From Bacteroidota bacterium (GTDB taxonomy: Bacteria > Bacteroidota > Bacteroidia > UBA8524), in NCBI GenBank assembly GCA_006226545.1, contig SBGR01000012.1, forward strand, positions 38,156 to 102,155: a DNA stretch of 64,000 nucleotides. The letters are read 5' to 3'. How positions within the stretch are numbered: position 1 is the first letter of the stretch; every line of letters starts with the position of its first letter. The notes beneath the pieces were generated by a model. It searched no databases and was not told where the DNA came from. It was given only the letters and a program-made list of their open reading frames with translations. A program made the position numbers and the translations under genes. Shown here piece after piece: positions 7,585 to 56,286 of the stretch.

Positions 7585-8841
7585 ATGTTGTACTACCTCT
7601 TTGAATACCTCGATAAGCACTTTAACCTGGCCGGAGCCGGTGTATTTCAATACATCTCCTTCCGTACGGCTGCGGCTATCATTACCTCGCTCATCATCTC
7701 CTTGCTGTTTGGCAAGCGTTTGATCGACTGGTTGCGCGGACAACAAGTGGCAGATGAGATTCGCGACTTAGGTTTAGACGGTGAGAAGCAGAAGAAAGGT
7801 ACGCCTACCATGGGTGGTATCATCATCTTGGGGGCTATCATTATTCCAACCCTGCTTTTCGCTCGCTTAGAAAACCTCTACGTCATCTTGATTTTGGTGG
7901 CCACCATCTGGTTGGGCTTCATCGGCTTCTTAGACGATTATATCAAAGTATTCAAAAAGGATAAAGCGGGCCTAGCCGGCCGATTTAAAATCTTGGGTCA
8001 GGTTGGTCTAGGGCTCATTGTGGGTAGCACCTTGTATTTCCATGAAACGGTGAAGGTGAGAGAGTATATCGCCCCTGCAGAGTATACGGCCATGGAAGAC
8101 CAATCTGCGGTGAAAACCTTTGTAACCAACGAGGGAGATACTTTATACTACCAAGACAGTAAATCGCTTTCAACCACCATTCCTTTTGTGAAGGAAAATG
8201 AGTTTAGCTACGCCTCCATCACACGCGCTTTGGGCGATACCGAGGGCAAGCTCAACTGGCTGCTTTATGTGTTGGTGGTGACCTTCATTATTACGGCGGT
8301 TTCCAACGGAGCGAATATCACAGACGGCATTGATGGATTGGCTGCAGGTGTATCGGGTATCATCGGTGTGATTTTGGGCATTTTCGCCTACCTCTCCGGT
8401 AACATACTATTCTCCAGCTACCTCAACATCATGTATATCCCGCACTTGGGTGAGCTGGTGATTTTCTCGGGAGCCTTTGTGGGAGCATGTATCGGCTTCT
8501 TGTGGTACAACAGTTTTCCGGCGCAGGTCTTTATGGGCGATACCGGCAGCTTAGCCTTGGGTGGGGTTATCGCAACCCTGGCTATCATGGTGCGTAAAGA
8601 ATTGTTGATTCCGATTCTCTGCGGCATTTTCCTCGTAGAGAACCTGAGTGTGATGATTCAGGTAGCCTACTTCAAGTATACCAAGAAGAAGTATGGCGAA
8701 GGACGAAGAGTCTTCTTGATGTCGCCATTACACCACCACTACCAAAAGAAAGGCTACCACGAAAGCAAAATTGTGACTCGCTTCTGGATCATCGGAATCT
8801 TCTTGGCCATCCTCACCGTAATCACCCTAAAACTGAGATAA
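7585..8841 (+). CDS. mraY: phospho-N-acetylmuramoyl-pentapeptide-transferase MraY (long Bacteroidota-type form with internal insertion)
   Basis: 418 aa polytopic membrane protein with MraY motifs ([39 protein letters not shown]). Confidence 0.92.
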
Positions 8842-8845
8842 GCAC

Positions 8846-10192
8846 TTGAACAAGAAACTGGTCATATTAGGTGCAGGCGAAAGCGGAACAGGCTCAGCCA
8901 TCCTCGGAAAACTTCGGGGCTGGGAAGTCTTTGTCTCTGATAAGGGAGAAATCAAAGAGCAGTACCGCCAGGAGCTGGATGAGGCCGGTATCGAATGGGA
9001 AAGCGGTCAACACAGCGAAGAGCGCATTCTTGCTGCCGATGAGGTGATTAAAAGTCCGGGCATTCCGGATAAAGCACCGCTGATTCAATCGCTTAAAAAG
9101 CAGGGAACACCGATCATCTCGGAGATTGAGTTTGCCGCACGCTATACCACAGCCAAGCTAATTGGCATTACCGGTACCAACGGTAAAACAACCACCACAT
9201 CGCTTTGCTACCACATCTTTCAAAAGGCAGGATTGCGAGTAGGCTTAGGCGGTAACATCGGTAAAAGCTTTGCACGCCAAGTGGCCTTAGACGACCAAGA
9301 TTACTACGTATTGGAAATATCCAGCTTCCAGCTGGACGATACCTATACCACGCGATTCCATGCGGCGGCATTGATCAATATCACGCCGGATCATTTGGAT
9401 CGCTACAACTACGAACTCAAGAATTACATCGATTCCAAATTTCGGATTACCCGCTCACAAACGGCAGAAGACCTCTTCGTGTACTGTGGCGACGATCCGA
9501 TTACGATGGAGCATATCGCCGACTATACCATCCTCGCTCAACGCTTTCCATTTACGATTGACGCAGAGCACAGCAGTCCGGGTGCATGGGTGAAAGACGG
9601 CGAGCTGCACATTGAAACCAAACAAACAGAAAACAACTTTACCATGGCAATACAAGAACTCTCCCTTCGGGGCAAACACAACAACTACAACTCCATGGCG
9701 GCGGCCGTTATTGCGAATGCATTCAATATTCGCAAGGAGGTTATCCGCGAAAGCTTAAGCGATTTCCAAAACGTAGAACACCGTTTGGAAAGTGTGGGCA
9801 AAGTGCGCGGAGTGGAATTTATCAATGATTCCAAAGCGACCAACGTAAACTCCAGCTGGTATGCCCTAGAAAGCATGGATCGTCCGGTGATCTGGATTGC
9901 CGGTGGGGTAGACAAAGGCAACGACTACAATTTGCTGAAGCAGTTGGTAAAAGACAAGGTGCGCATCATCGTGTGCTTGGGACTTGACAACCGCAAAATC
10001 CACGAAGCTTTTTCCAAAGACGTGGACATGATTCTGAATACCACTTCCATGCAAGAAGCCGTAAAGGTAGCCTACCACATGGCCGATAAGGAAGATGCGG
10101 TATTGTTGTCGCCAGCCTGCGCCAGCTTCGATTTGTTTGAAAACTACGAAGACCGCGGTCGCCAATTTAAGAAGTACGTTAAAAACCTCTAA
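8846..10192 (+). CDS. murD: UDP-N-acetylmuramoylalanine--D-glutamate ligase MurD
   Basis: TTG start (only start codon after the mraY stop). N-terminal Rossmann motif LVILGAGESG, Mur ligase P-loop [11 protein letters not shown], and C-terminal domain. Confidence 0.88.
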   Translation: MNKKLVILGAGESGTGSAILGKLRGWEVFVSDKGEIKEQYRQELDEAGIEWESGQHSEERILAADEVIKSPGIPDKAPLIQSLKKQGTPIISEIEFAARYTTAKLIGITGTNGKTTTTSLCYHIFQKAGLRVGLGGNIGKSFARQVALDDQDYYVLEISSFQLDDTYTTRFHAAALINITPDHLDRYNYELKNYIDSKFRITRSQTAEDLFVYCGDDPITMEHIADYTILAQRFPFTIDAEHSSPGAWVKDGELHIETKQTENNFTMAIQELSLRGKHNNYNSMAAAVIANAFNIRKEVIRESLSDFQNVEHRLESVGKVRGVEFINDSKATNVNSSWYALESMDRPVIWIAGGVDKGNDYNLLKQLVKDKVRIIVCLGLDNRKIHEAFSKDVDMILNTTSMQEAVKVAYHMADKEDAVLLSPACASFDLFENYEDRGRQFKKYVKNL

Positions 10193-10195
10193 GCG

Positions 10196-11383
10196 ATGTA
10201 CAACTGGCTGTTATCAAAAGTTAAAGGTGATACGGTGATCTGGACCATCGTAGTGCTACTCTCTGTGGGTGGCCTGCTGGCGGTATACAGCTCAACCGGT
10301 TCATTGGCCTTTAAACAACAGGGTGGTAATACCGAGTTCTACCTCCTGAAGCAGCTGGTCTTTATCCTTTTGGGTTTTGGGTTTATGTGGCTTTGTCACC
10401 TTTTAGACTACCGCTACTATTCCCGACTCTCTCAGTTGTTCTTGTATTTGTCTTATCCTCTGCTCCTCTATACCTTGTTGTTTGGGGTGGAGATCAACGA
10501 TGCCCGCCGGTGGATTGCCATACCGGGTACGGGCCTCACGTTCCAGACGTCCGACTTAGCCAAGCTCGCGCTTATTATGTACGTAGCGAGGTTCTTGTCG
10601 AAACGCCAGGAAAACATCAAAGACTTCAAAGGTGCCTTTTTACCGATATTGATTTCGGTATCCGTTATCTGTGTTCTGATAGCGCCGGCTAACCTTTCTA
10701 CAGCCTTAGTTATCTTTTCTACTTGTTTGCTTCTGATGTTCATCGGACGTATTCCGATTAAGTATATCCTTGCCGTGGTGGCAGCAGGTGTGGTAACCTT
10801 TGCTTTAGCCGCTTCGCTGGTATTTAATATGCCGGATGAGAAACTGGAAAACATCGCGCGTTTGCGCACTTGGAAAGCACGTATTGAAAACTTCATGGCT
10901 GATAATCCGGAAACGGGTGGAGGTAATTTTCAGAACGTACAAGCCAAGATTGCCATTGCAGGCGGTGGCTTAACAGGAAAAGGTCCGGGTAATAGCACCC
11001 AACGTAATTTCTTGCCTTCACCTTATGCGGATTTCATCTTCGCTATCATCTTGGAAGAATACGGGCTGATGGGAGGCGTAGCGCTTATTTTCCTGTATTT
11101 GCTTTTACTCTTCCGATCGATACGGATTGTGATAAAGAGTCCGAAAGCCTTTGGCGCCCTGCTGGCCGTCGGACTGAGTTTCAGCCTGGTAATCCAGGCA
11201 TTCATCAACATGGGCGTAGCGGTCAATATTTTCCCTGTTACCGGATTGGCTTTGCCGCTGGTGAGCATGGGGGGTACGTCTACCATCTTTACCAGTTTAG
11301 CCTTCGGTATCATTCTTAGTGTAAGCCGAACGATTGAGCAAGAGGGTGGTGAGGTAAATGAAAGTGAGGTGGCCCATGCGTAA
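10196..11383 (+). CDS. ftsW: peptidoglycan glycosyltransferase FtsW (SEDS family)
   Basis: 395 aa with ~10 TM segments and SEDS motifs (…IPGTGLTFQTSDLAKL…, SMGGTS). Positioned between murD and murG. Confidence 0.88.
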   Translation: MYNWLLSKVKGDTVIWTIVVLLSVGGLLAVYSSTGSLAFKQQGGNTEFYLLKQLVFILLGFGFMWLCHLLDYRYYSRLSQLFLYLSYPLLLYTLLFGVEINDARRWIAIPGTGLTFQTSDLAKLALIMYVARFLSKRQENIKDFKGAFLPILISVSVICVLIAPANLSTALVIFSTCLLLMFIGRIPIKYILAVVAAGVVTFALAASLVFNMPDEKLENIARLRTWKARIENFMADNPETGGGNFQNVQAKIAIAGGGLTGKGPGNSTQRNFLPSPYADFIFAIILEEYGLMGGVALIFLYLLLLFRSIRIVIKSPKAFGALLAVGLSFSLVIQAFINMGVAVNIFPVTGLALPLVSMGGTSTIFTSLAFGIILSVSRTIEQEGGEVNESEVAHA

Positions 11384-12455
11384 AGTGATTATTTCTGGAG
11401 GAGGTACCGGCGGACATATTTTCCCGGCTGTAGCGATAGCCAATGAGATAAAGTCGCGCTACCCGGATTGTGAGATTCTCTTCATCGGAGCGAAAGGCCG
11501 CATGGAGATGCAGAAAGTGCCGCAGGCCGGATACCAAATCGAAGGATTGGATATTGCCGGATTGCAGCGCAAGCTAGATCCGAAGAATTTGTTGTTGCCG
11601 TTTAAGGTGATTAAAAGTTTGCTTCAAGCGAGAAGTATCATCAAGCGATTTAAACCTGAGGTGGCTGTGGGGGTTGGAGGTTATGCTTCAGCGCCTATGT
11701 TGTTCATGGCTCAGATGGCGGGCATCCCGACACTGATTCAAGAGCAGAACAGTTTTGCCGGTTTAACAAACCGCATCCTCGCTAAACGTGCGAAAAAGAT
11801 TTGTGTTGCCTATCCAAATATGGATCAGGTATTCCAGGCAGAGAAGATTGTTTTAACCGGGAATCCGGTAAGAAAAGACATCGCTTCCGGTCAAGCCAGT
11901 AGAGAAGAAGCATTGAAGTTCTTTGGCTTGGAAAGCGATAAGCCGGTGCTTTTAGCGATAGGCGGAAGTCTGGGGGCTAGAACCATCAATACTGCCTTGA
12001 AAGAAGGCGCAGAACAAGTTTCCAAGGCGGGTATTCAGCTGCTTTGGCAATGTGGTAAATCGGCTTACCCGAATTTGAAAGACATCAACCAAGGTGGTAT
12101 TCAGGTACATGAGTTTATCCAAAGAATGGACCTGGCTTATGCAGCTGCGGATGTGGTGATTTCCAGGGCCGGTGCTTTATCGGTTAGTGAGCTTTGTTTG
12201 GTTGCGAAGCCTTCCATCTTGGTGCCATCGCCACACGTGGCAGAAGACCACCAAACCAAGAATGCCAAAGTATTGGCCGATGCCGGCGCCGCTATTCTTG
12301 TGAAGGACAGCGAGGCAGGTCAGATCTTGGTAGATGAAGCTATTAGCCTGACCAAACGCGCCGATTTGAAAACGAAACTAAGTAATGCCGTCCGGGGATT
12401 AGCGTATCCTGAGGCTGATAAAAAGATTGTAGACTGTTTAGAAGGTTTGCTATGA
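11376..12455 (+). CDS. murG: undecaprenyldiphospho-muramoylpentapeptide beta-N-acetylglucosaminyltransferase MurG
   Basis: Contains ISGGGTGGHIFPA (the MurG G-loop). The track ORF begins at ATG 11358, but the second ATG at 11376 gives the usual short N-terminus (MRKVIISGGGTGGH). Either start overlaps the ftsW end. Confidence 0.88.
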   Translation: MRKVIISGGGTGGHIFPAVAIANEIKSRYPDCEILFIGAKGRMEMQKVPQAGYQIEGLDIAGLQRKLDPKNLLLPFKVIKSLLQARSIIKRFKPEVAVGVGGYASAPMLFMAQMAGIPTLIQEQNSFAGLTNRILAKRAKKICVAYPNMDQVFQAEKIVLTGNPVRKDIASGQASREEALKFFGLESDKPVLLAIGGSLGARTINTALKEGAEQVSKAGIQLLWQCGKSAYPNLKDINQGGIQVHEFIQRMDLAYAAADVVISRAGALSVSELCLVAKPSILVPSPHVAEDHQTKNAKVLADAGAAILVKDSEAGQILVDEAISLTKRADLKTKLSNAVRGLAYPEADKKIVDCLEGLL

Positions 12456-13810
12456 TAGCTGCGAAACTGAAAGAAGTGTATTTCCTTGGTATTGGAGGCA
12501 TTGGCATGAGCGCCATTGCACGGTATTTCCATGCCCAGGGCATTCGCGTTTCGGGTTACGACAAAACGCCTTCTCCCTTAACCGACGCGCTGATTGCCTC
12601 AGGTATGAAAGTCAGCTTTGATGAATCGGTAGAGGCCTTGCCTGAATCAGTTAAACAAGCTAGCGATGAGGTGCTGCTGGTGTATACACCTGCCATTCCG
12701 GCACAGCACGCGCAGAAAAAGTATTTTGAAGCGCAAGGACGTCGCTTATACAAACGTTCTGAAGTGCTGGGGTTAATTACCCAAAGCAATCCAACTTTGG
12801 CTGTTGCCGGCACACATGGCAAAACAACCACTTCCACCTTGCTTACCCATTTGATGGTGAAGGCAGGTGTAGATTCCACTGCTTTCTTGGGTGGTATCGC
12901 CGTGAATTACGGTAGCAATTATATCCAAGCGAATAACCCGGCTACTGCGCCTGTGATTGTAGAAGCCGATGAATACGATCGCTCTTTCTTAACGCTGCAT
13001 CCCCACATGGCCCTCATCAGTTCCATGGATGCGGATCACTTAGACATCTACGGCGAAAGCAGTGCCTTTGAAGAAGGCTTCAGGCAGTTTGCTTCGCAAG
13101 TGAAAGGGAAGCTTTTTGTAAGGGAAGGTTTAAATCCAGGCAGAACCGATTTCTATACCTACGGAATTAGCGAAACGGCTGATTACTGTGCACTGAACGT
13201 GCGCATTGAAAACGGTGCCTACGTCTTTGATTTGAAGACGCCGGTACAGTTAATTGAAAACCTGAGCTGCGGATTACCTGGAAGGCATAATGTTGAGAAT
13301 GCAGTGGGCGCTTCGGCAATCGCTTTGGAATACGGCATTACGCCGGAACAGCTAAGAGAAGCACTAGCTTCTTACCGAGGTGTGAAGCGAAGGTTTGAGT
13401 ATATCGTTAAAGAAACCGGTAAGGTGTATATCGATGATTATGCTCATCACCCAACTGAGCTTTCTGCCTTTATACAGTCGGCAAAAGAACTCTTTCCAAA
13501 TAAGCCATTGCTGGGCGTGTTTCAGCCGCACTTGTTTACCCGCACCCGCGATTTTATGGAGGGCTTTGCGGAGAGCTTGAGTATGTTGGATACGCTGGTT
13601 TTGATGGACATCTACCCGGCCAGGGAAGAACCCATTGAAGGGATAAACTCATCGGCTTTGCTGGCCCAAGTGAGCATAGCGGATAAGCACTTATTGCCAA
13701 AAGAAGCCATTGTTGATTTTGTAAAAGAAAGAAATCCGGAAATACTCCTAACCATGGGAGCCGGTGATATAGATAGGCTTGTGCCTCAATTGAAGGAGGT
13801 GATGCAATGA
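12452..13810 (+). CDS. murC: UDP-N-acetylmuramate--L-alanine ligase MurC
   Basis: 452 aa with FLGIGGIGMSAIARY (MurC N-terminal) and P-loop GTHGKTTTS. Start overlaps the murG stop (ATGA). Confidence 0.9.
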   Translation: MIAAKLKEVYFLGIGGIGMSAIARYFHAQGIRVSGYDKTPSPLTDALIASGMKVSFDESVEALPESVKQASDEVLLVYTPAIPAQHAQKKYFEAQGRRLYKRSEVLGLITQSNPTLAVAGTHGKTTTSTLLTHLMVKAGVDSTAFLGGIAVNYGSNYIQANNPATAPVIVEADEYDRSFLTLHPHMALISSMDADHLDIYGESSAFEEGFRQFASQVKGKLFVREGLNPGRTDFYTYGISETADYCALNVRIENGAYVFDLKTPVQLIENLSCGLPGRHNVENAVGASAIALEYGITPEQLREALASYRGVKRRFEYIVKETGKVYIDDYAHHPTELSAFIQSAKELFPNKPLLGVFQPHLFTRTRDFMEGFAESLSMLDTLVLMDIYPAREEPIEGINSSALLAQVSIADKHLLPKEAIVDFVKERNPEILLTMGAGDIDRLVPQLKEVMQ

Positions 13811-51013: not shown

Positions 51014-52720
51014 ATGCAAAAGAATTGGAGGGCAAAGCCGATACCCACACCCGAAGTGGTCAATCACTTGAAGTCTGTATTGGGTATTGGCGATATACTT
51101 GCTATCCTTTTAGCGCAGCGTGGCATTCAAACCTTTGATGAGGCCAAACACTTTTTTCGACCCGATAAATCCTTTCTCCATGATCCATTTTTAATGCCCG
51201 ATATGCAGGCCGCAGTGAACCGCATTGAAGTGGCGCTAAAAAAAGGGGAGAAGGTTCTCTTATTTGGAGATTACGACGTAGACGGCACCACATCCGTAAG
51301 CTTGATGTACCTTTTCTTAAAACCGCACCATGATCAATTGGAATTTTATATCCCCGATCGTTTTCTGGAAGGGTACGGAATTTCCCAAGCAGGCATCGAC
51401 TATGCAGCAAACGAAGGATTCTCCTTGGTCATATCCTTAGATTGTGGGGTGAAGTCGGTAGAGCTGATTGCTCAGGCCAAAGAACGCGGTATTGATTTCA
51501 TCGTTTGCGACCACCACGAGCCAGGGGAAGTTCTTCCGCCTGCCATTGCGGTATTAGACGCCAAAAGAAAAGATTCCAACTACCCTTATACAGAGCTTTC
51601 GGGCTGCGGGGTTGGTTTCAAATTGGCTCAAGCCTTAACACAGTACTTTGTTTGGCCTGAGGATGATTTGTGGGCGTTGATGGATTTTGTAGCCGTTAGC
51701 ATTGCTTGCGATATTGTTCAGATGGATGGTGAAAACCGGGCTTTGAGTTATTTAGGTATGCAAAAGCTCAATGCCAATCCGCATCCAGGAATCAAAGTAC
51801 TCTTAAAGAAGGCTTTTGAGAAAAACCCGAAGAAGGTCTATGATATTAGCGACGTGCTTTTTTATGCCGGTCCACGCATCAATGCAGCAGGCCGACTCTA
51901 TCACGCCAAAGGCGCTGTTGAATTACTTATTGAGCAATCAGAAGACAAGGCTTGGGAGTTTGCTCAAGCGCTTCACCTGCACAATGAGCAGCGACGAAAC
52001 CTAGAGCAAGAAATCAGCAAGCAAGCCGAATCCGAATTAGAGGCAATGCCGGATTTTGCTAAGTCCAAATCAACCGTAGCTTATAATCCGGAATGGAATA
52101 AAGGGGTTATCGGTATCGTAGCCTCACGCTTGGTAGAGAAATACTATAGGCCAACCATTGTTCTCACTCGATCTGAAGGGAAATTGGCGGGTTCAGCACG
52201 CTCAGTAGGTAACTTTGATATTCATTCGGCTATTGAGGCCTGCTCAGAACATTTATTGCAGTTTGGAGGTCATACCCATGCGGCGGGATTAACCTTGAAA
52301 GAAGAGAATCTAGTGGCGTTTAAAGCGGCTTTTGAAAAGGTGGTGACTGAGCGAATCCATCCGGATGATCTTCAGCCTAGCTTGGAATACGACTTGGAAA
52401 TTCCTTTGAACCTAATCCACGACAAGTGGGTTGATAAGTTGATGCAAATGAACCCATTCGGGCCCGGTAATATGAATCCGATTTTTATGTCGAGAAAAGT
52501 TCGCGATACGGGCATGCCGAAAGCCTATGGAGAACACCTATCGCTAAACCTTTGGGCCGGTGAGCAAGTGATTGGCGCGATGGCATTTTCGCAAGCTGTA
52601 AATCTAAATGCTGTAAAGCAGGGCAAACTTTTTGATATTTGCTACCACATTGATCGTTCAGAATTCAATGGCAAAACACGATTGCAGTTGCGAATTCTGG
52701 ACATGAAGCCTTCGGAATAA
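51014..52720 (+). CDS. recJ: single-stranded-DNA-specific exonuclease RecJ
   Basis: 568 aa with DHH phosphoesterase motifs ([21 protein letters not shown]) and a DHHA1 region (GGHTHAAGL). Confidence 0.9.
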
Positions 52721-53460
52721 TGATCTTAAGAACTGAAAATCTCCTCAAACAATACCGTCACCGTAAAGTGGTAAACGATGTGTCCATACAAGTGGAACAA
52801 GGAGAAATTGTTGGATTGCTTGGTCCGAATGGCGCCGGTAAAACCACTACCTTTTACATGACAGTGGGTTTGGTGAGTGCAGATGACGGCAGAATCTTTC
52901 TCGACGATGAAGACATCACCAAACTTCCAATGTACAAAAGAGCCCAAAAGGGTATTGGATACTTACCACAAGAAGCTTCTGTTTTTAGAAAGCTCACGGT
53001 AGAAGACAATATCTTGGCGGTTCTAGAGATGACCAACTTGAGCAAAGCCGATCGAAAGGCAAAGCTGGAAGAGCTGATAGAAGAATTCAGTTTGCACAAG
53101 GTGAGAAAGAATCTTGGTCAAGTACTTAGTGGTGGTGAGCGAAGAAGGACGGAAATAGCCCGAGCCTTGGCTACTGATCCGAAGTTTATCTTGTTGGATG
53201 AGCCGTTTGCCGGTGTTGACCCAATTGCGGTAGAAGACATTCAAGGCATCATTCATACGCTTAAAAAGAAAAATATCGGTGTACTAATCACGGATCATAA
53301 CGTGGACGAAACACTCGGAATCACAGACCGTGCTTATTTACTTTTTGAAGGAAAGCTGCTCAAAGAAGGTACCCCGGAAGAATTGGCTGAAGATGAAATG
53401 GTGCGCCGTGTCTACCTCGGTAAGAACTTCGTCTTGCGAAAAGCTTTCGCAGGAAGATAG
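52720..53460 (+). CDS. lptB: LPS export ABC transporter ATP-binding protein LptB
   Basis: 246 aa with Walker [14 protein letters not shown], the LptB-typical [15 protein letters not shown], signature LSGGERRR and Walker [10 protein letters not shown]. Start overlaps the recJ stop. Confidence 0.85.
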
Positions 53461-53482
53461 GGTGCAAATTATAATTTCTGTT

Positions 53483-53503
53483 GGGACGCCACGCTTGGCG
53501 TCC
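53483..53503. repeat. REP-like palindrome copy 1 (GGACGCCAcgctTGGCGTCC core)
   Basis: 7-8 bp stem with a 4-nt loop. The identical 25-nt sequence tgt(t/g)gggacgccacgcttggcgtcc recurs at 53655-53676 and, inverted, at 53995-54020. Confidence 0.6.
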
Positions 53504-53654
53504 GTCGGGAAGATAGGGTGCAAATTATAATTTCTGTGGGGACGCTGGAATATAGAGTGTGAAATGTTATTTCTGTGGGGACGCTGTAAGATAGAGTGTG
53601 AAATATTATTTCTATGGGGACTCTGGAATATAGAGTGTAAATTGTTATTTCTGT

Positions 53655-53676
53655 GGGGACGCCACGCTTGGCGTCC
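53655..53676. repeat. REP-like palindrome copy 2
   Basis: ggggacgccacgcttggcgtcc at the end of the 39-nt array, ~40 nt from the 3' end of the RAYT gene. Confidence 0.6.
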
Positions 53677-53715
53677 GTCCTTCCTTCCTAATAGCAGAGC
53701 TAACAGCTTTTTAAA

Positions 53716-54393
53716 TCATTTCCCTTTCCAGTTTTCTGGATTCTTTTTGATATACCAGCTGATGGTCTCAAATGATTCTTGATCTCGGACAATATGCTCG
53801 TAGAAACGACTTTGCCAAGCAAAATCAGGTTCGATATTTCGAGCTCTAGTTGTTACTGCTGATTTAAATCCTCTCATGATGGAAGCCAAATTATTGGATT
53901 GAGGACCAAATTGATTTTGAGGACTTTCACTCAAGTTTTGGAAAGGATTGATAACAGGAATGTCGTGGGGTAGTTTTGAGCTGTTCTCCGCATTGGGGAC
54001 GCCAAGCGTGGCGTCCCAACATTGAATTGAATCCTCAACCTTATGAGGGTCTCCTTCAATTATCTTGGCATCTCTTATTTCATTGTAATCAAGATTAGTT
54101 GCAGTATACTGCAGGTTACCTGAATTGTCGCCGATGCCAATCAAAGCATGAAAGTGGTTAGGCATCACTATGAATTCTCCCCTGAATAAGTTCAAATAGC
54201 TCCTGATTTCGAACGTTTTTATCCATTCATCTTGGACAATTTTACCAATTGAACTTAGCTGAATTTTAGAGTCTATAAATTCTCCAAAATGGCATAGTCG
54301 GTTTTTTGTAATCAACGTAATGAAATACAATCCAGAATTGGCATAATTCCAATGCTGTATCCTTAGCGATTCACCATAATATCGTTTAGTCAT
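53716..54393 (-). CDS. REP-associated tyrosine transposase (RAYT; IS200/IS605-like Y1 HUH transposase family)
   Basis: 225 aa with an N-terminal YFITLITKNR… strand, the HUH motif MPNHFHALIG, and a conserved SIMRGFKSAVTTRARN…FAWQSRFYEHIVRD block with the catalytic Tyr. The HUH-to-Tyr spacing is ~45 aa longer than usual because of the REP-containing insert. Confidence 0.7.
   Translation of the reverse strand: MTKRYYGESLRIQHWNYANSGLYFITLITKNRLCHFGEFIDSKIQLSSIGKIVQDEWIKTFEIRSYLNLFRGEFIVMPNHFHALIGIGDNSGNLQYTATNLDYNEIRDAKIIEGDPHKVEDSIQCWDATLGVPNAENSSKLPHDIPVINPFQNLSESPQNQFGPQSNNLASIMRGFKSAVTTRARNIEPDFAWQSRFYEHIVRDQESFETISWYIKKNPENWKGK
53995..54020. repeat. REP-like palindrome copy 3, inverted orientation, inside the RAYT coding sequence
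   Basis: ggggacgccaagcgtggcgtcccaac is the reverse complement of copies 1 and 2 including flanks. It encodes …CWDATLGVPNAE… in the transposase frame. Confidence 0.6.
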
Positions 54394-54510
54394 AAGTATA
54401 CAGATAAAGGTAGCTTGTTGTTAACTAACTGATTTCATTAAAGTTTCATCTTTTGGTTGAGGGCATGTATCTTTTTAAACTTTCGACGTTATAGTGTCAA
54501 TTGACCGCCT

Positions 54511-56286
54511 ATGAAACGTCTCCTTTTTGTCCTTGCTCTCGCTGCGACCTCGCTACTTTTTCTCATTCCTGGTTCGAAAGAATCTGTTGAAAAACCGGAG
54601 TCACTTTCTCAGGATTTACCCTCTGATATCACTGACCTTCCTTATGTTGGAGACTTTGAATCAGAACCCACTTCAATGCGCTGGGTGTCTTTTTCTAGCG
54701 AAACACTACCAATCCTTAATCCTCCTTCATTTGCTCTACCGGAGCAATTAGCAGATTCTTTGCAGTGCGACTTGCCTCTTTTAGAAAGTCCCCAAACTTT
54801 GGGTTCCTTTCAATTCAAGGAGGTAAAAAATGTAAATCCGCCATTTCCGACTATTCAGGTTCCACATGAAGTAATTACCGTCTCGGCCGCTGACTTGAAA
54901 TATGTGCAGAAACTGAAATTCATGGATGGAACGGTTTTAAATATTCCGGCAAATGCCCTCTGCATGAAAGACGGCAGCGACGTTAAAGATCCTATTCAAG
55001 TTGCTTATATGCCGCTGGATAATGCCTTTGATGTAATGTTGAGTGGTATACCAATGACCTACGATAGCGCAGGGGGACAAAGTCTTTTCCAAACCGCAGG
55101 TATGTTTCGCTTAGAAGCAAAAACAAATAAGGGTGAAGAGGTGGTTTTGAAGGACGGAAAAGCCATGAATATAGCCATGCCGACGGTAGATACCGGTGGG
55201 CGGTACAACGACTATCGATTTGATGAGCAAAGCGGAATATGGAAGTTTCAGGAGACATCTGTATCGGCTTATAATTCCTTTGTGAGAGTGGAGAATTCTA
55301 AAGAATCAGAAAGTCTAGACTACTTGTTTTTCAACAAAGACTATGCATATACCTATTCGACGGAAAACCGATTGACGCCCACCAACCTTTGTGTAAATCA
55401 TTCTCGTAAGCATAACTCCTGCCGCATACATGAGCCTTATAACATTAAGCCCAGCAGAATAAAAACCATTTACTTCAAAACACAGACGGTACGAAACGCC
55501 GAAGACAAAACGAAGAGTATCTACTTTACAGCAGAAAAACCTGATTACTATTGGGCTTTCAATCCGGAATGGAGAGTGTTCAACAACTGGAAATTTAAGT
55601 CCATCGATTATACCGAATCCAAAGAATTTAGGTTAGCCTACAAGGGTGGTAAGCGGTATAACGACATGCGTTTGATTTGGGATGGAAAAAGCAATGATGT
55701 GCTTTTATTGTTAAAACATGGTGGAGGAATGGATAGTCTCCATGCAGAAGCTTGGGACCTGAACGATAGAAAGGCATTTCAATTGCGTCGAACTTTCGCT
55801 AGAAAATACCGTCGTTACCAACGTGAATTGAACAAAAGAGAAGAGTGCCATAGAGCCAACATGCGGAGATTTCAGACTCAAACTGATCGGATGAAATTGG
55901 TGCAAACCAGACCGATGGTGCTCCCGGGTTTCGGAATTTACAACTGTGATCGAACCTACCTAATGGCAAGTCCACGCAGGTATACAAAGCTAGAATACAC
56001 AACGGCTGAAGGTCTATTGATAATGCCTTCTCAGATCATTGTTTTGGACGAGAAAGCTAGAGGTGCATTTTTCCTTAATTCAATGAGTTTTAATGCATGT
56101 ACAAAGGGTACCGTGGCGGTTTTAACATCGGATACTTCTGGGAATATGCTAGCCTGTTCAGGCAAACATTTAGCGCAATATGGAAGTTACAAAGGAGGCA
56201 AAAGGCTTAGCTTTCAAGTTGTGCCGGATGAAGTTAAAGAATACACAGCATTGCAGAATTGGCTGGAGAGTTTGAGTGAAGAATAA
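54511..56286 (+). CDS. hypothetical secreted protein, 591 aa, no recognisable domain
   Basis: ATG 54511 with signal peptide MKRLLFVLALAATSLLFLIPG. Long uninterrupted ORF with Cys-poor, Lys/Arg-rich composition in its second half. No motif recognised. Confidence 0.5.
   Translation: MKRLLFVLALAATSLLFLIPGSKESVEKPESLSQDLPSDITDLPYVGDFESEPTSMRWVSFSSETLPILNPPSFALPEQLADSLQCDLPLLESPQTLGSFQFKEVKNVNPPFPTIQVPHEVITVSAADLKYVQKLKFMDGTVLNIPANALCMKDGSDVKDPIQVAYMPLDNAFDVMLSGIPMTYDSAGGQSLFQTAGMFRLEAKTNKGEEVVLKDGKAMNIAMPTVDTGGRYNDYRFDEQSGIWKFQETSVSAYNSFVRVENSKESESLDYLFFNKDYAYTYSTENRLTPTNLCVNHSRKHNSCRIHEPYNIKPSRIKTIYFKTQTVRNAEDKTKSIYFTAEKPDYYWAFNPEWRVFNNWKFKSIDYTESKEFRLAYKGGKRYNDMRLIWDGKSNDVLLLLKHGGGMDSLHAEAWDLNDRKAFQLRRTFARKYRRYQRELNKREECHRANMRRFQTQTDRMKLVQTRPMVLPGFGIYNCDRTYLMASPRRYTKLEYTTAEGLLIMPSQIIVLDEKARGAFFLNSMSFNACTKGTVAVLTSDTSGNMLACSGKHLAQYGSYKGGKRLSFQVVPDEVKEYTALQNWLESLSEE

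Follow-up and report, generated by a model that had tools for sequence, protein, structure and literature searches.

A REP hairpin in frame within the gene of its presumed cognate RAYT transposase in a Bacteroidota bacterium

In a 64,000-nucleotide stretch of genomic DNA from a Bacteroidota bacterium (assembly GCA_006226545.1, contig SBGR01000012.1; hereafter the window), a copy of the REP palindrome that flanks a RAYT transposase gene lies, in inverted orientation, inside the reading frame of that gene. This arrangement raises the question of whether the enzyme's own substrate hairpin entered the gene and left its frame open, as the original prediction proposed, or whether the gene is a decaying one whose frame persists by chance. 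Our analyses make it highly probable that the gene is an intact, vertically inherited RAYT at whose locus its own REPs gather, and that the in-gene copy persists in a disordered linker of the protein.

The RAYT gene and the REP copies at its locus

The features of the locus are summarized in Table 1. At an E-value below 1e-5, similarity searches with the encoded protein found over 1100 homologs, the majority of them in Bacteroidota, and the source names of several of them read 'REP element-mobilizing transposase RayT' or 'transposase'. Invariance was scored on an alignment of 34 sequences, one of them being the window protein, and the HUH and Tyr residues were among its invariant columns; in the Tyr helix, Y214, I215 and N218 were invariant and P219 was nearly so. 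The curated family models were matched below their cut-offs: Pfam PF01797 (Y1_Tnp) scored 16.6 bits versus a gathering cut-off of 23 and covered the C-terminal half only, and the NCBIfam equivalog NF047646 (REP_Tyr_transpos), the top match of its library, scored 48 bits (E 1.1e-12) in two stretches, yet remained under its curated cut-off of 80. These sub-threshold scores plausibly arose because the long linker of the protein splits the domain.

Table 1. Features of the RAYT locus, in window positions; invariance refers to the 34-sequence alignment
Feature	Position	Strand	Description
RAYT / TnpA_REP-type HUH-Tyr (Y1) transposase gene	53716..54393	minus	225 aa; ORF intact
HUH motif, H80-F81-H82 within PNHFH	54148..54156	minus	H80 and H82 invariant
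Hypervariable linker, about residues 93-161	53911..54117	minus	between beta-3/HUH and helix alpha-C
Internal REP copy	53995..54020	minus	translated C125-W-D-A-T-L-G-V-P133 (CWDATLGVP)
WQ motif, W193-Q194 in AWQSRFYEH	53812..53817	minus	W193 invariant, Q194 nearly so
Catalytic tyrosine codon, Y214 in WYIKKNP	53752..53754	minus	Y214 invariant
External REP copy 1	53479..53503	plus	foot GTTG, stem GGACGCCA/TGGCGTCC, loop CGCT
External REP copy 2	53652..53676	plus	foot GTGG, stem and loop as in copy 1
Tandem array, five units of 39/56 nt	53452..53680	plus	in the ABC-ATPase/RAYT spacer

In an AlphaFold2 model based on 34 homologs, pLDDT was above 90 in both core halves and below 50 at residues 93-145 and 157-162. 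A Foldseek search of the PDB with this model gave as its top match 4er8_A, the E. coli TnpA_REP with its REP hairpin (E 9.7e-5; TM 0.60, normalised to target), and ranks 2-30 were all occupied by TnpA structures of the IS200/IS605 family (IS608, ISDra2, IS200 and related). A profile search also recovered 4er8 and aligned the HUH and WQ...YIxNP blocks, AWQSRFYEH being paired with IWQPRFWEH and the Y214 region with the YIxNP tyrosine helix. The predicted structure is thus a Y1 HUH fold, with the HUH strand and the Tyr helix placed on an RRM-like beta-sheet core. The REP-encoded residues, codons 125-133, fall within the low-confidence segment 93-145, that is, in a linker outside the confidently folded HUH core.

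The public counterpart of this protein (P0001, 'hypothetical protein EP332_01875', 199 aa) has its start placed 26 codons further into the gene than the ATG at 54393. The 26 residues missing from it (MTKRYYGESLRIQHWNYANSGLYFIT, 54316-54393) align with the conserved N-terminus of the homologs, and both its deposited start and its name look wrong.

The in-gene copy reads ggggacgccaagcgtggcgtcccaac, exactly as originally quoted, and the translation contains SIQCWDATLGVPNAENSSKL across the region, which bears out the claim of an inverted REP in frame within the transposase ORF. The coding strand corresponds to the REP top strand, with a 5' GTTG foot and a CGCT loop, and the hairpin core GGGACGCCA-AGCG-TGGCGTCCC (53996-54017) comprises 22 nt with a perfect 9-bp stem and a 4-nt loop. 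It matched the reverse complement of external copy 1, 493 nt away, at 25 of 25 positions and external copy 2, likewise inverted, at 24 of 25. A degenerate REP pattern found these three sites only in the 64-kb window, all at the RAYT locus, where dinucleotide shuffles of 64 kb gave an expectation of 0.00 sites, and no left-arm half-sites were found elsewhere in the window. Folded as ssDNA, the internal copy reached -11.6 to -12.0 kcal/mol (z -3.5 to -4.1), and the three copies as a set about -10 to -12 kcal/mol (z about -3.3 to -4.1). A role of the hairpins as intrinsic terminators or known RNAs was rejected, since a 3' U-run or T-run was absent at every REP copy of the locus and none of these hairpins had an Rfam match. 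Candidates for further, decayed REPs in the gene (e.g., IRDAKIIEGDP) were also discarded, their best non-self 26-mer match (13/26) being at shuffle level.

External copies occur 3' of the RAYT gene only, copy 1 at 19 nt past the stop of the convergent ABC-ATPase gene and copy 2 at 39 nt beyond the RAYT stop codon, and the internal copy is inverted relative to both; their stem bases read GG(G)AC.../...GTC(C)C. In the tandem array that contains them, every unit opens with GGAAGATAG or a variant of it, a duplicate of the ABC gene's final 9 nt with the stop codon, and closes with the REP left arm GT[GT]GGGACGC; the whole palindrome with loop and right arm is present in units 1 and 5 only. The array is lineage-specific, because the corresponding 55-nt spacer of the closest ortholog (locus L081, described below) lacks it and has a single REP; hairpin slippage or aborted RAYT events are possible origins.

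Conservation of the locus and variability of the linker

The closest distinct homolog (P0002, 58% amino acid identity) is encoded at L081 in GCA_900174595.1. The order recJ, ABC ATPase (246 aa), RAYT and a 591-aa protein is common to window positions 51014-56286 and L081 positions 8108-13132, which identifies P0002 as the positional ortholog. This conserved gene order places the RAYT at a stable chromosomal site, where it behaves as a vertically inherited single-copy gene, and its ORF was found intact in two syntenic orthologs. Between the window gene and its ortholog, Nei-Gojobori estimates of dN/dS were 0.25/2.13 = 0.12 for the N-terminal core, 0.14/1.77 = 0.08 for the C-terminal core and 0.61/1.62 = 0.38 for the linker, with dS saturated. 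Judged by these sequence comparisons, strong purifying selection acts on the catalytic halves, while constraint on the linker, itself intact, is relaxed.

The stretch from HUH to NQFGPQS could not be aligned among the 34 sequences and was highly variable in length. Measured from the HUH motif to the FGPQ start of helix alpha-C, the linker has 79 aa in the window and a median of 45 aa (range 20-88) in 115 homologs, so that the window linker is the third longest of 116. The original prediction had put the excess at roughly 45 aa, which is of the right order of magnitude; the measured values are +34 aa relative to the median, +59 to the shortest and +16 to the syntenic ortholog. It had also taken the extra segment to be exactly the part with the REP-encoded residues; the segment does contain the REP, but the REP supplies only 9 of the roughly 35-59 extra residues. 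The 16-aa excess over the ortholog derives mainly from a 33-nt in-frame insertion at 54088-54120 (11 aa), which is absent from L081 and splits a conserved G-x-N-x-Y-N after the HUH strand. Within this insertion, the 14-nt perfect palindrome TGCAGTATACTGCA (54100-54113) was considered as another inserted element and dismissed, being unique in the window and folding no better than shuffles (z -0.96).

At L081, the hairpin occupies the same codon and frame (GGT GGC GAC GCC ATG CCT GGC GTC CCT, translated GGDAMPGVP), and the insertion therefore predates the split from this 58%-identical ortholog. Of its stem nucleotides, 17 of 18 are identical in window and L081; the rest of the aligned linker shows roughly 53% nucleotide identity, a value derived from pS and pN. 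The loops follow the genome: CGCT is found in the internal copy (coding strand) and both external copies of the window, and TGCC in the internal and the single external copy of L081. As in the window, the internal copy of L081 is inverted relative to the external one, which again lies on the gene's 3' side only. This pattern implies that internal and external copies have been homogenised, presumably by conversion, re-insertion or common selection. After a dS of about 2, stem conservation and within-genome loop identity exceed what is expected of a passive relic, and some maintenance process is thus needed. Since both available syntenic orthologs are 'filled', the insertion event in the window lineage was not directly observed.

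REPs in the linkers of homologous RAYTs

To describe the REPs in other members of the family, the 115 homologs were screened with a translated-REP peptide pattern, which was of our own making and defined post hoc. The pattern was present in the linker of 98 of the 115 (about 85%), mainly as RDAMHCVST or, in another frame, as VETQCIASL; GTAGAGACGCAATGCATTGCGTCTCTAC is open in the two frames that give these peptides and has a TAG in the remaining one. At the nucleotide level, 80 genome loci with 4-kb flanks were sampled together with L081 and the window locus, and 71 gene models were obtained. In 49 of these 71 loci the linker contained a perfect palindrome whose stem measured 8 bp or more, and palindrome density was 5.67 per kb in the linkers versus 0.71 per kb in the remaining ORF. 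In the 15 loci with flank copies, the internal variants fitted the flanks of their own locus far more often than the variants of other loci did. The number of REP copies per linker varied from 0 to 4, with shifting positions, and some copies (e.g., at L047) were partial, with half of the hairpin duplicated in lengths divisible by three nucleotides.

About 10 of the 115 homologs had no REP trace at all, and the linkers of such relatives measured 20-26 aa. An empty and a filled allele could be compared directly in the pair P0012 (empty) and P0006 (filled), which share 87% amino acid identity and downstream synteny, and which differ by a clean 81-nt in-frame indel starting exactly at the REP. By these comparisons, the linker is a dynamic site at which the cognate REP has landed or been retained repeatedly.

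The search for the insert in relatives, which the original prediction had recommended along with an alignment of homologs and a structural model, thus met with a filled ortholog, insert-free relatives and an empty/filled pair, and the alignment delimited the linker as given above. The idea of the element's own hairpin lying in frame in a gene that it did not inactivate gained support from the 25/25 identity with the flank, the low-pLDDT segment (below 50) and the recurrence among homologs. The case is not an isolated one; the internal REP is a family-wide trait and, in the window lineage, is older than the split from the 58%-identical ortholog. Equally long linkers throughout the homologs had been named as the finding that would make the feature native and the similarity coincidental. 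Long linkers are indeed common, but they bear REPs and hence do not refute the proposal: since the homologs have long linkers because they carry REPs, 'native feature' and 'REP-derived' are not alternatives.

An excess of REPs in the linker over the flanks (5.7 versus about 1.2 per kb with 400-nt flanks) was considered as an argument for selection and abandoned, because it largely vanishes when only the intergenic flank is counted, at an assumed figure of ~250 nt per locus. In 27 of the 71 loci, an internal REP was present and no REP-like palindrome occurred within 400 nt on either side. REPs on both flanks were seen at 2 of the 48 loci whose linker bears a copy versus 5 of the 23 that had none; small as they are, these numbers hint that a copy inside the gene may substitute for one in the flanks.

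Two further observations concern REPs translated outside the linker (proteins P0101, P0006, P0022 and P0102; locus L203, 3015-3062). P0101 has a REP-encoded peptide, GTDAMLCVS, in an N-terminal loop. Several database ORFs run upstream through 5'-flanking REPs (MLYFGGRDAMHCGDAMHG...), and these extensions are probably mis-called starts.

Competing explanations and known systems

The decaying pseudo-RAYT of the original prediction, a gene whose frame has survived by chance, can draw on the sub-threshold matches to curated family HMMs, on the unusually long linker (third longest of 116) and on a public annotation as a hypothetical protein with a truncated start. The 225-codon ORF is intact, however, its HUH, WQ and Tyr helix motifs are present and conserved in the 34-sequence alignment, its syntenic ortholog is intact too, the catalytic halves showing dN/dS of 0.08-0.12, and its core fold is predicted with confidence; decay is rejected as very improbable. 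Likewise contradicted, and in our estimate marginally less credible still, is a palindrome that arose as the coincidental by-product of a D-A-x-x-G/C-V motif selected at the protein level and unrelated to REPs. Although the D-A...V spacing recurs in most homologs, as such a motif would, many homologs read the same DNA palindrome in the second frame (VETQCIASL), its copies range from 0 to 4 with shifting positions and are absent in some close relatives, the residues concerned sit in a disordered segment, and the palindrome equals the non-coding flank copies nucleotide for nucleotide (25/25 in the window).

A more serious competitor, or complement, which we nevertheless hold to be unlikely, is an internal hairpin that is more than tolerated and is preserved by selection as a functional component of the REP-RAYT unit, either as a cis site whereby the enzyme or an RNA hairpin limits RAYT expression, or as an assured 'seed' REP whose inheritance along with the gene prevents enzyme and substrate from being parted. 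Such maintenance would keep the hairpin perfect and identical to the external copies, and would explain the loci whose internal copy is the only nearby REP (27/71), and it agrees with a stem conserved at 17 of 18 nt despite saturated synonymous sites, with a loop that co-varies with the external copy in each genome, and with the fact that most internal copies are perfect palindromes, up to 28 nt, in otherwise hypervariable linkers. The co-variation, however, is explained equally well by gene conversion or re-insertion, and the linker density of 5.7 per kb resembles that of the intergenic flanks (at the assumed ~250 nt per locus), as expected if both were equally permissive. Moreover, close relatives carry decayed copies (GRDEMHRVST, RDAMNCVST) and P0012 has lost its copy cleanly, with no sign of harm in either case, about 10 of the 115 homologs retain no REP trace, and the hairpin, with no U-run after it, is not an intrinsic terminator and has no Rfam match.

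We therefore favor the reading of an intact RAYT whose own REPs gather at its locus. By analogy with the 4ER8 structure and with the biochemistry of E. coli TnpA_REP, the only enzyme for which REP binding and cleavage are documented biochemically, the protein would recognise REP hairpins on ssDNA and cut at a 5' GT[AG]G foot, and REP copies would accumulate around and within the enzyme's own locus. Selection would then remove intragenic copies except those that are in frame, stop-free and located in the disordered surface linker from the HUH strand to helix alpha-C, which hairpin-promoted slippage and indels would subsequently inflate. The hairpin itself would have been placed by insertion rather than by another process, with conversion or re-insertion preserving its identity to the flanking copies. 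Further in-frame indels, such as the lineage-specific 11-aa insertion, together with expansion of low-complexity sequence near the hairpin, would account for the rest of the long linker.

The occurrence of REPs inside tnpA_REP genes has already been published, as a trait peculiar to subclass 2.4, by Quentin, Siguier, Chandler and Fichant (2018; BMC Genomics 19:475, PMC6006769). Their study equates this subclass, characterized by the signatures NH[IFV]H, WQ and YIxNNP, with RAYT group 4 of Bertels, and its structural reading of the in-gene REPs is the same as ours. The window gene in all likelihood belongs to this subclass, which is rich in Bacteroidota and Cyanobacteria. PNHFH at residues 78-82 fits NH[IFV]H, a WQ dipeptide lies upstream of the Tyr helix, and the Bacteroidota host, the long linker predicted to be disordered (79 aa) and the REP within the gene (codons 125-133) all agree with it. 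The flanking REPs agree as well: those of the subclass are long, with a GT[AG]G foot and a stem whose base consists of three G-C pairs, and are represented in the window by the GTGG copy at 53652-53676. The Tyr motif departs slightly from YIxNNP, which is also the consensus among the 34 homologs: YIKKNP in the window and YIKTNP in the ortholog keep Y, I, the second N and P but have the first N replaced. Further differences are the GTTG foot in two of the three copies, GTGG being confined to one full copy and to three of the array's four truncated units (half-REPs), the stem GGGACGCCA with a CGCT loop in place of the common GAGACGCAATGCATTGCGTCTC, and a linker that is among the longest seen. 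The repeats that flank group 4 RAYTs are modest in number, about 14 per replicon (Bertels et al., 2017), which fits the lack of further REPs in the 64-kb window.

E. coli TnpA_REP (4ER8; Ton-Hoang 2012, Messing 2012), the best structural match, resembles the window protein in combining the HUH motif with one catalytic Tyr; its substrate is a REP hairpin bearing a 5' GTAG foot, and its gene has REPs at its flanks. Sequence identity is only about 14%, however, and the E. coli enzyme belongs to subclass 2.2, not 2.4, has a short connection from HUH to helix alpha-C and carries no REP in its gene. A study of the recognition determinants of TnpA_REP (Corneloup et al., 2021) does not mention in-gene REPs. 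With the TnpA of IS200/IS605 elements, the window protein shares the HUH/Y1 fold and, by analogy, ssDNA hairpin substrates, but the hairpins of those elements lie outside the transposase ORF and define the mobile ends, whereas one of the window hairpins lies within the ORF, and the window RAYT, unlike IS200/IS605, is single-copy at a conserved syntenic site. In-frame insertion of palindromic repeats into other genes was described for GTAG-tagged REPs and likened to the Rickettsia RPEs (Di Nocera et al., 2013; BMC Genomics 14:522). There, as in the window, a palindromic repeat lies in coding sequence with the frame kept, and the protein gains from a few residues to some tens, presumably in loops. 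The host genes in those cases are unrelated to the repeat (e.g., DNA repair or replication), whereas the host in the window is the repeat's cognate enzyme and the site recurs across a whole subfamily.

As an instance of the phenomenon, the window case is thus a rediscovery and an ordinary one, and its value is confirmatory; it offers a clean, well-delimited example of a mobile-element substrate within the gene of its own enzyme. What it adds to the published account is a hairpin kept at one codon position through saturating divergence with a loop that co-varies with the flanks, together with an empty/filled allele pair in a related clade. These additions sharpen the question of whether internal REPs are tolerated or are kept for regulation or co-inheritance.

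In a metagenome scan with GGGACGCCANNNNTGGCGTCC, none of the 80 stretches inspected (L082-L161), out of at least 120, had the CGCT loop, and none lay within a RAYT-like ORF, a result that has no bearing on the source genome. These 80 stretches represent a related, abundant family of GTAG-footed REPs with TATA, TACA or TAAT loops, which has the stem GGGACGCCA/TGGCGTCCC in common with the window REP. About half of their copies were located in stop-free stretches of at least 100 codons, and copies of this family might frequently lie within ORFs.
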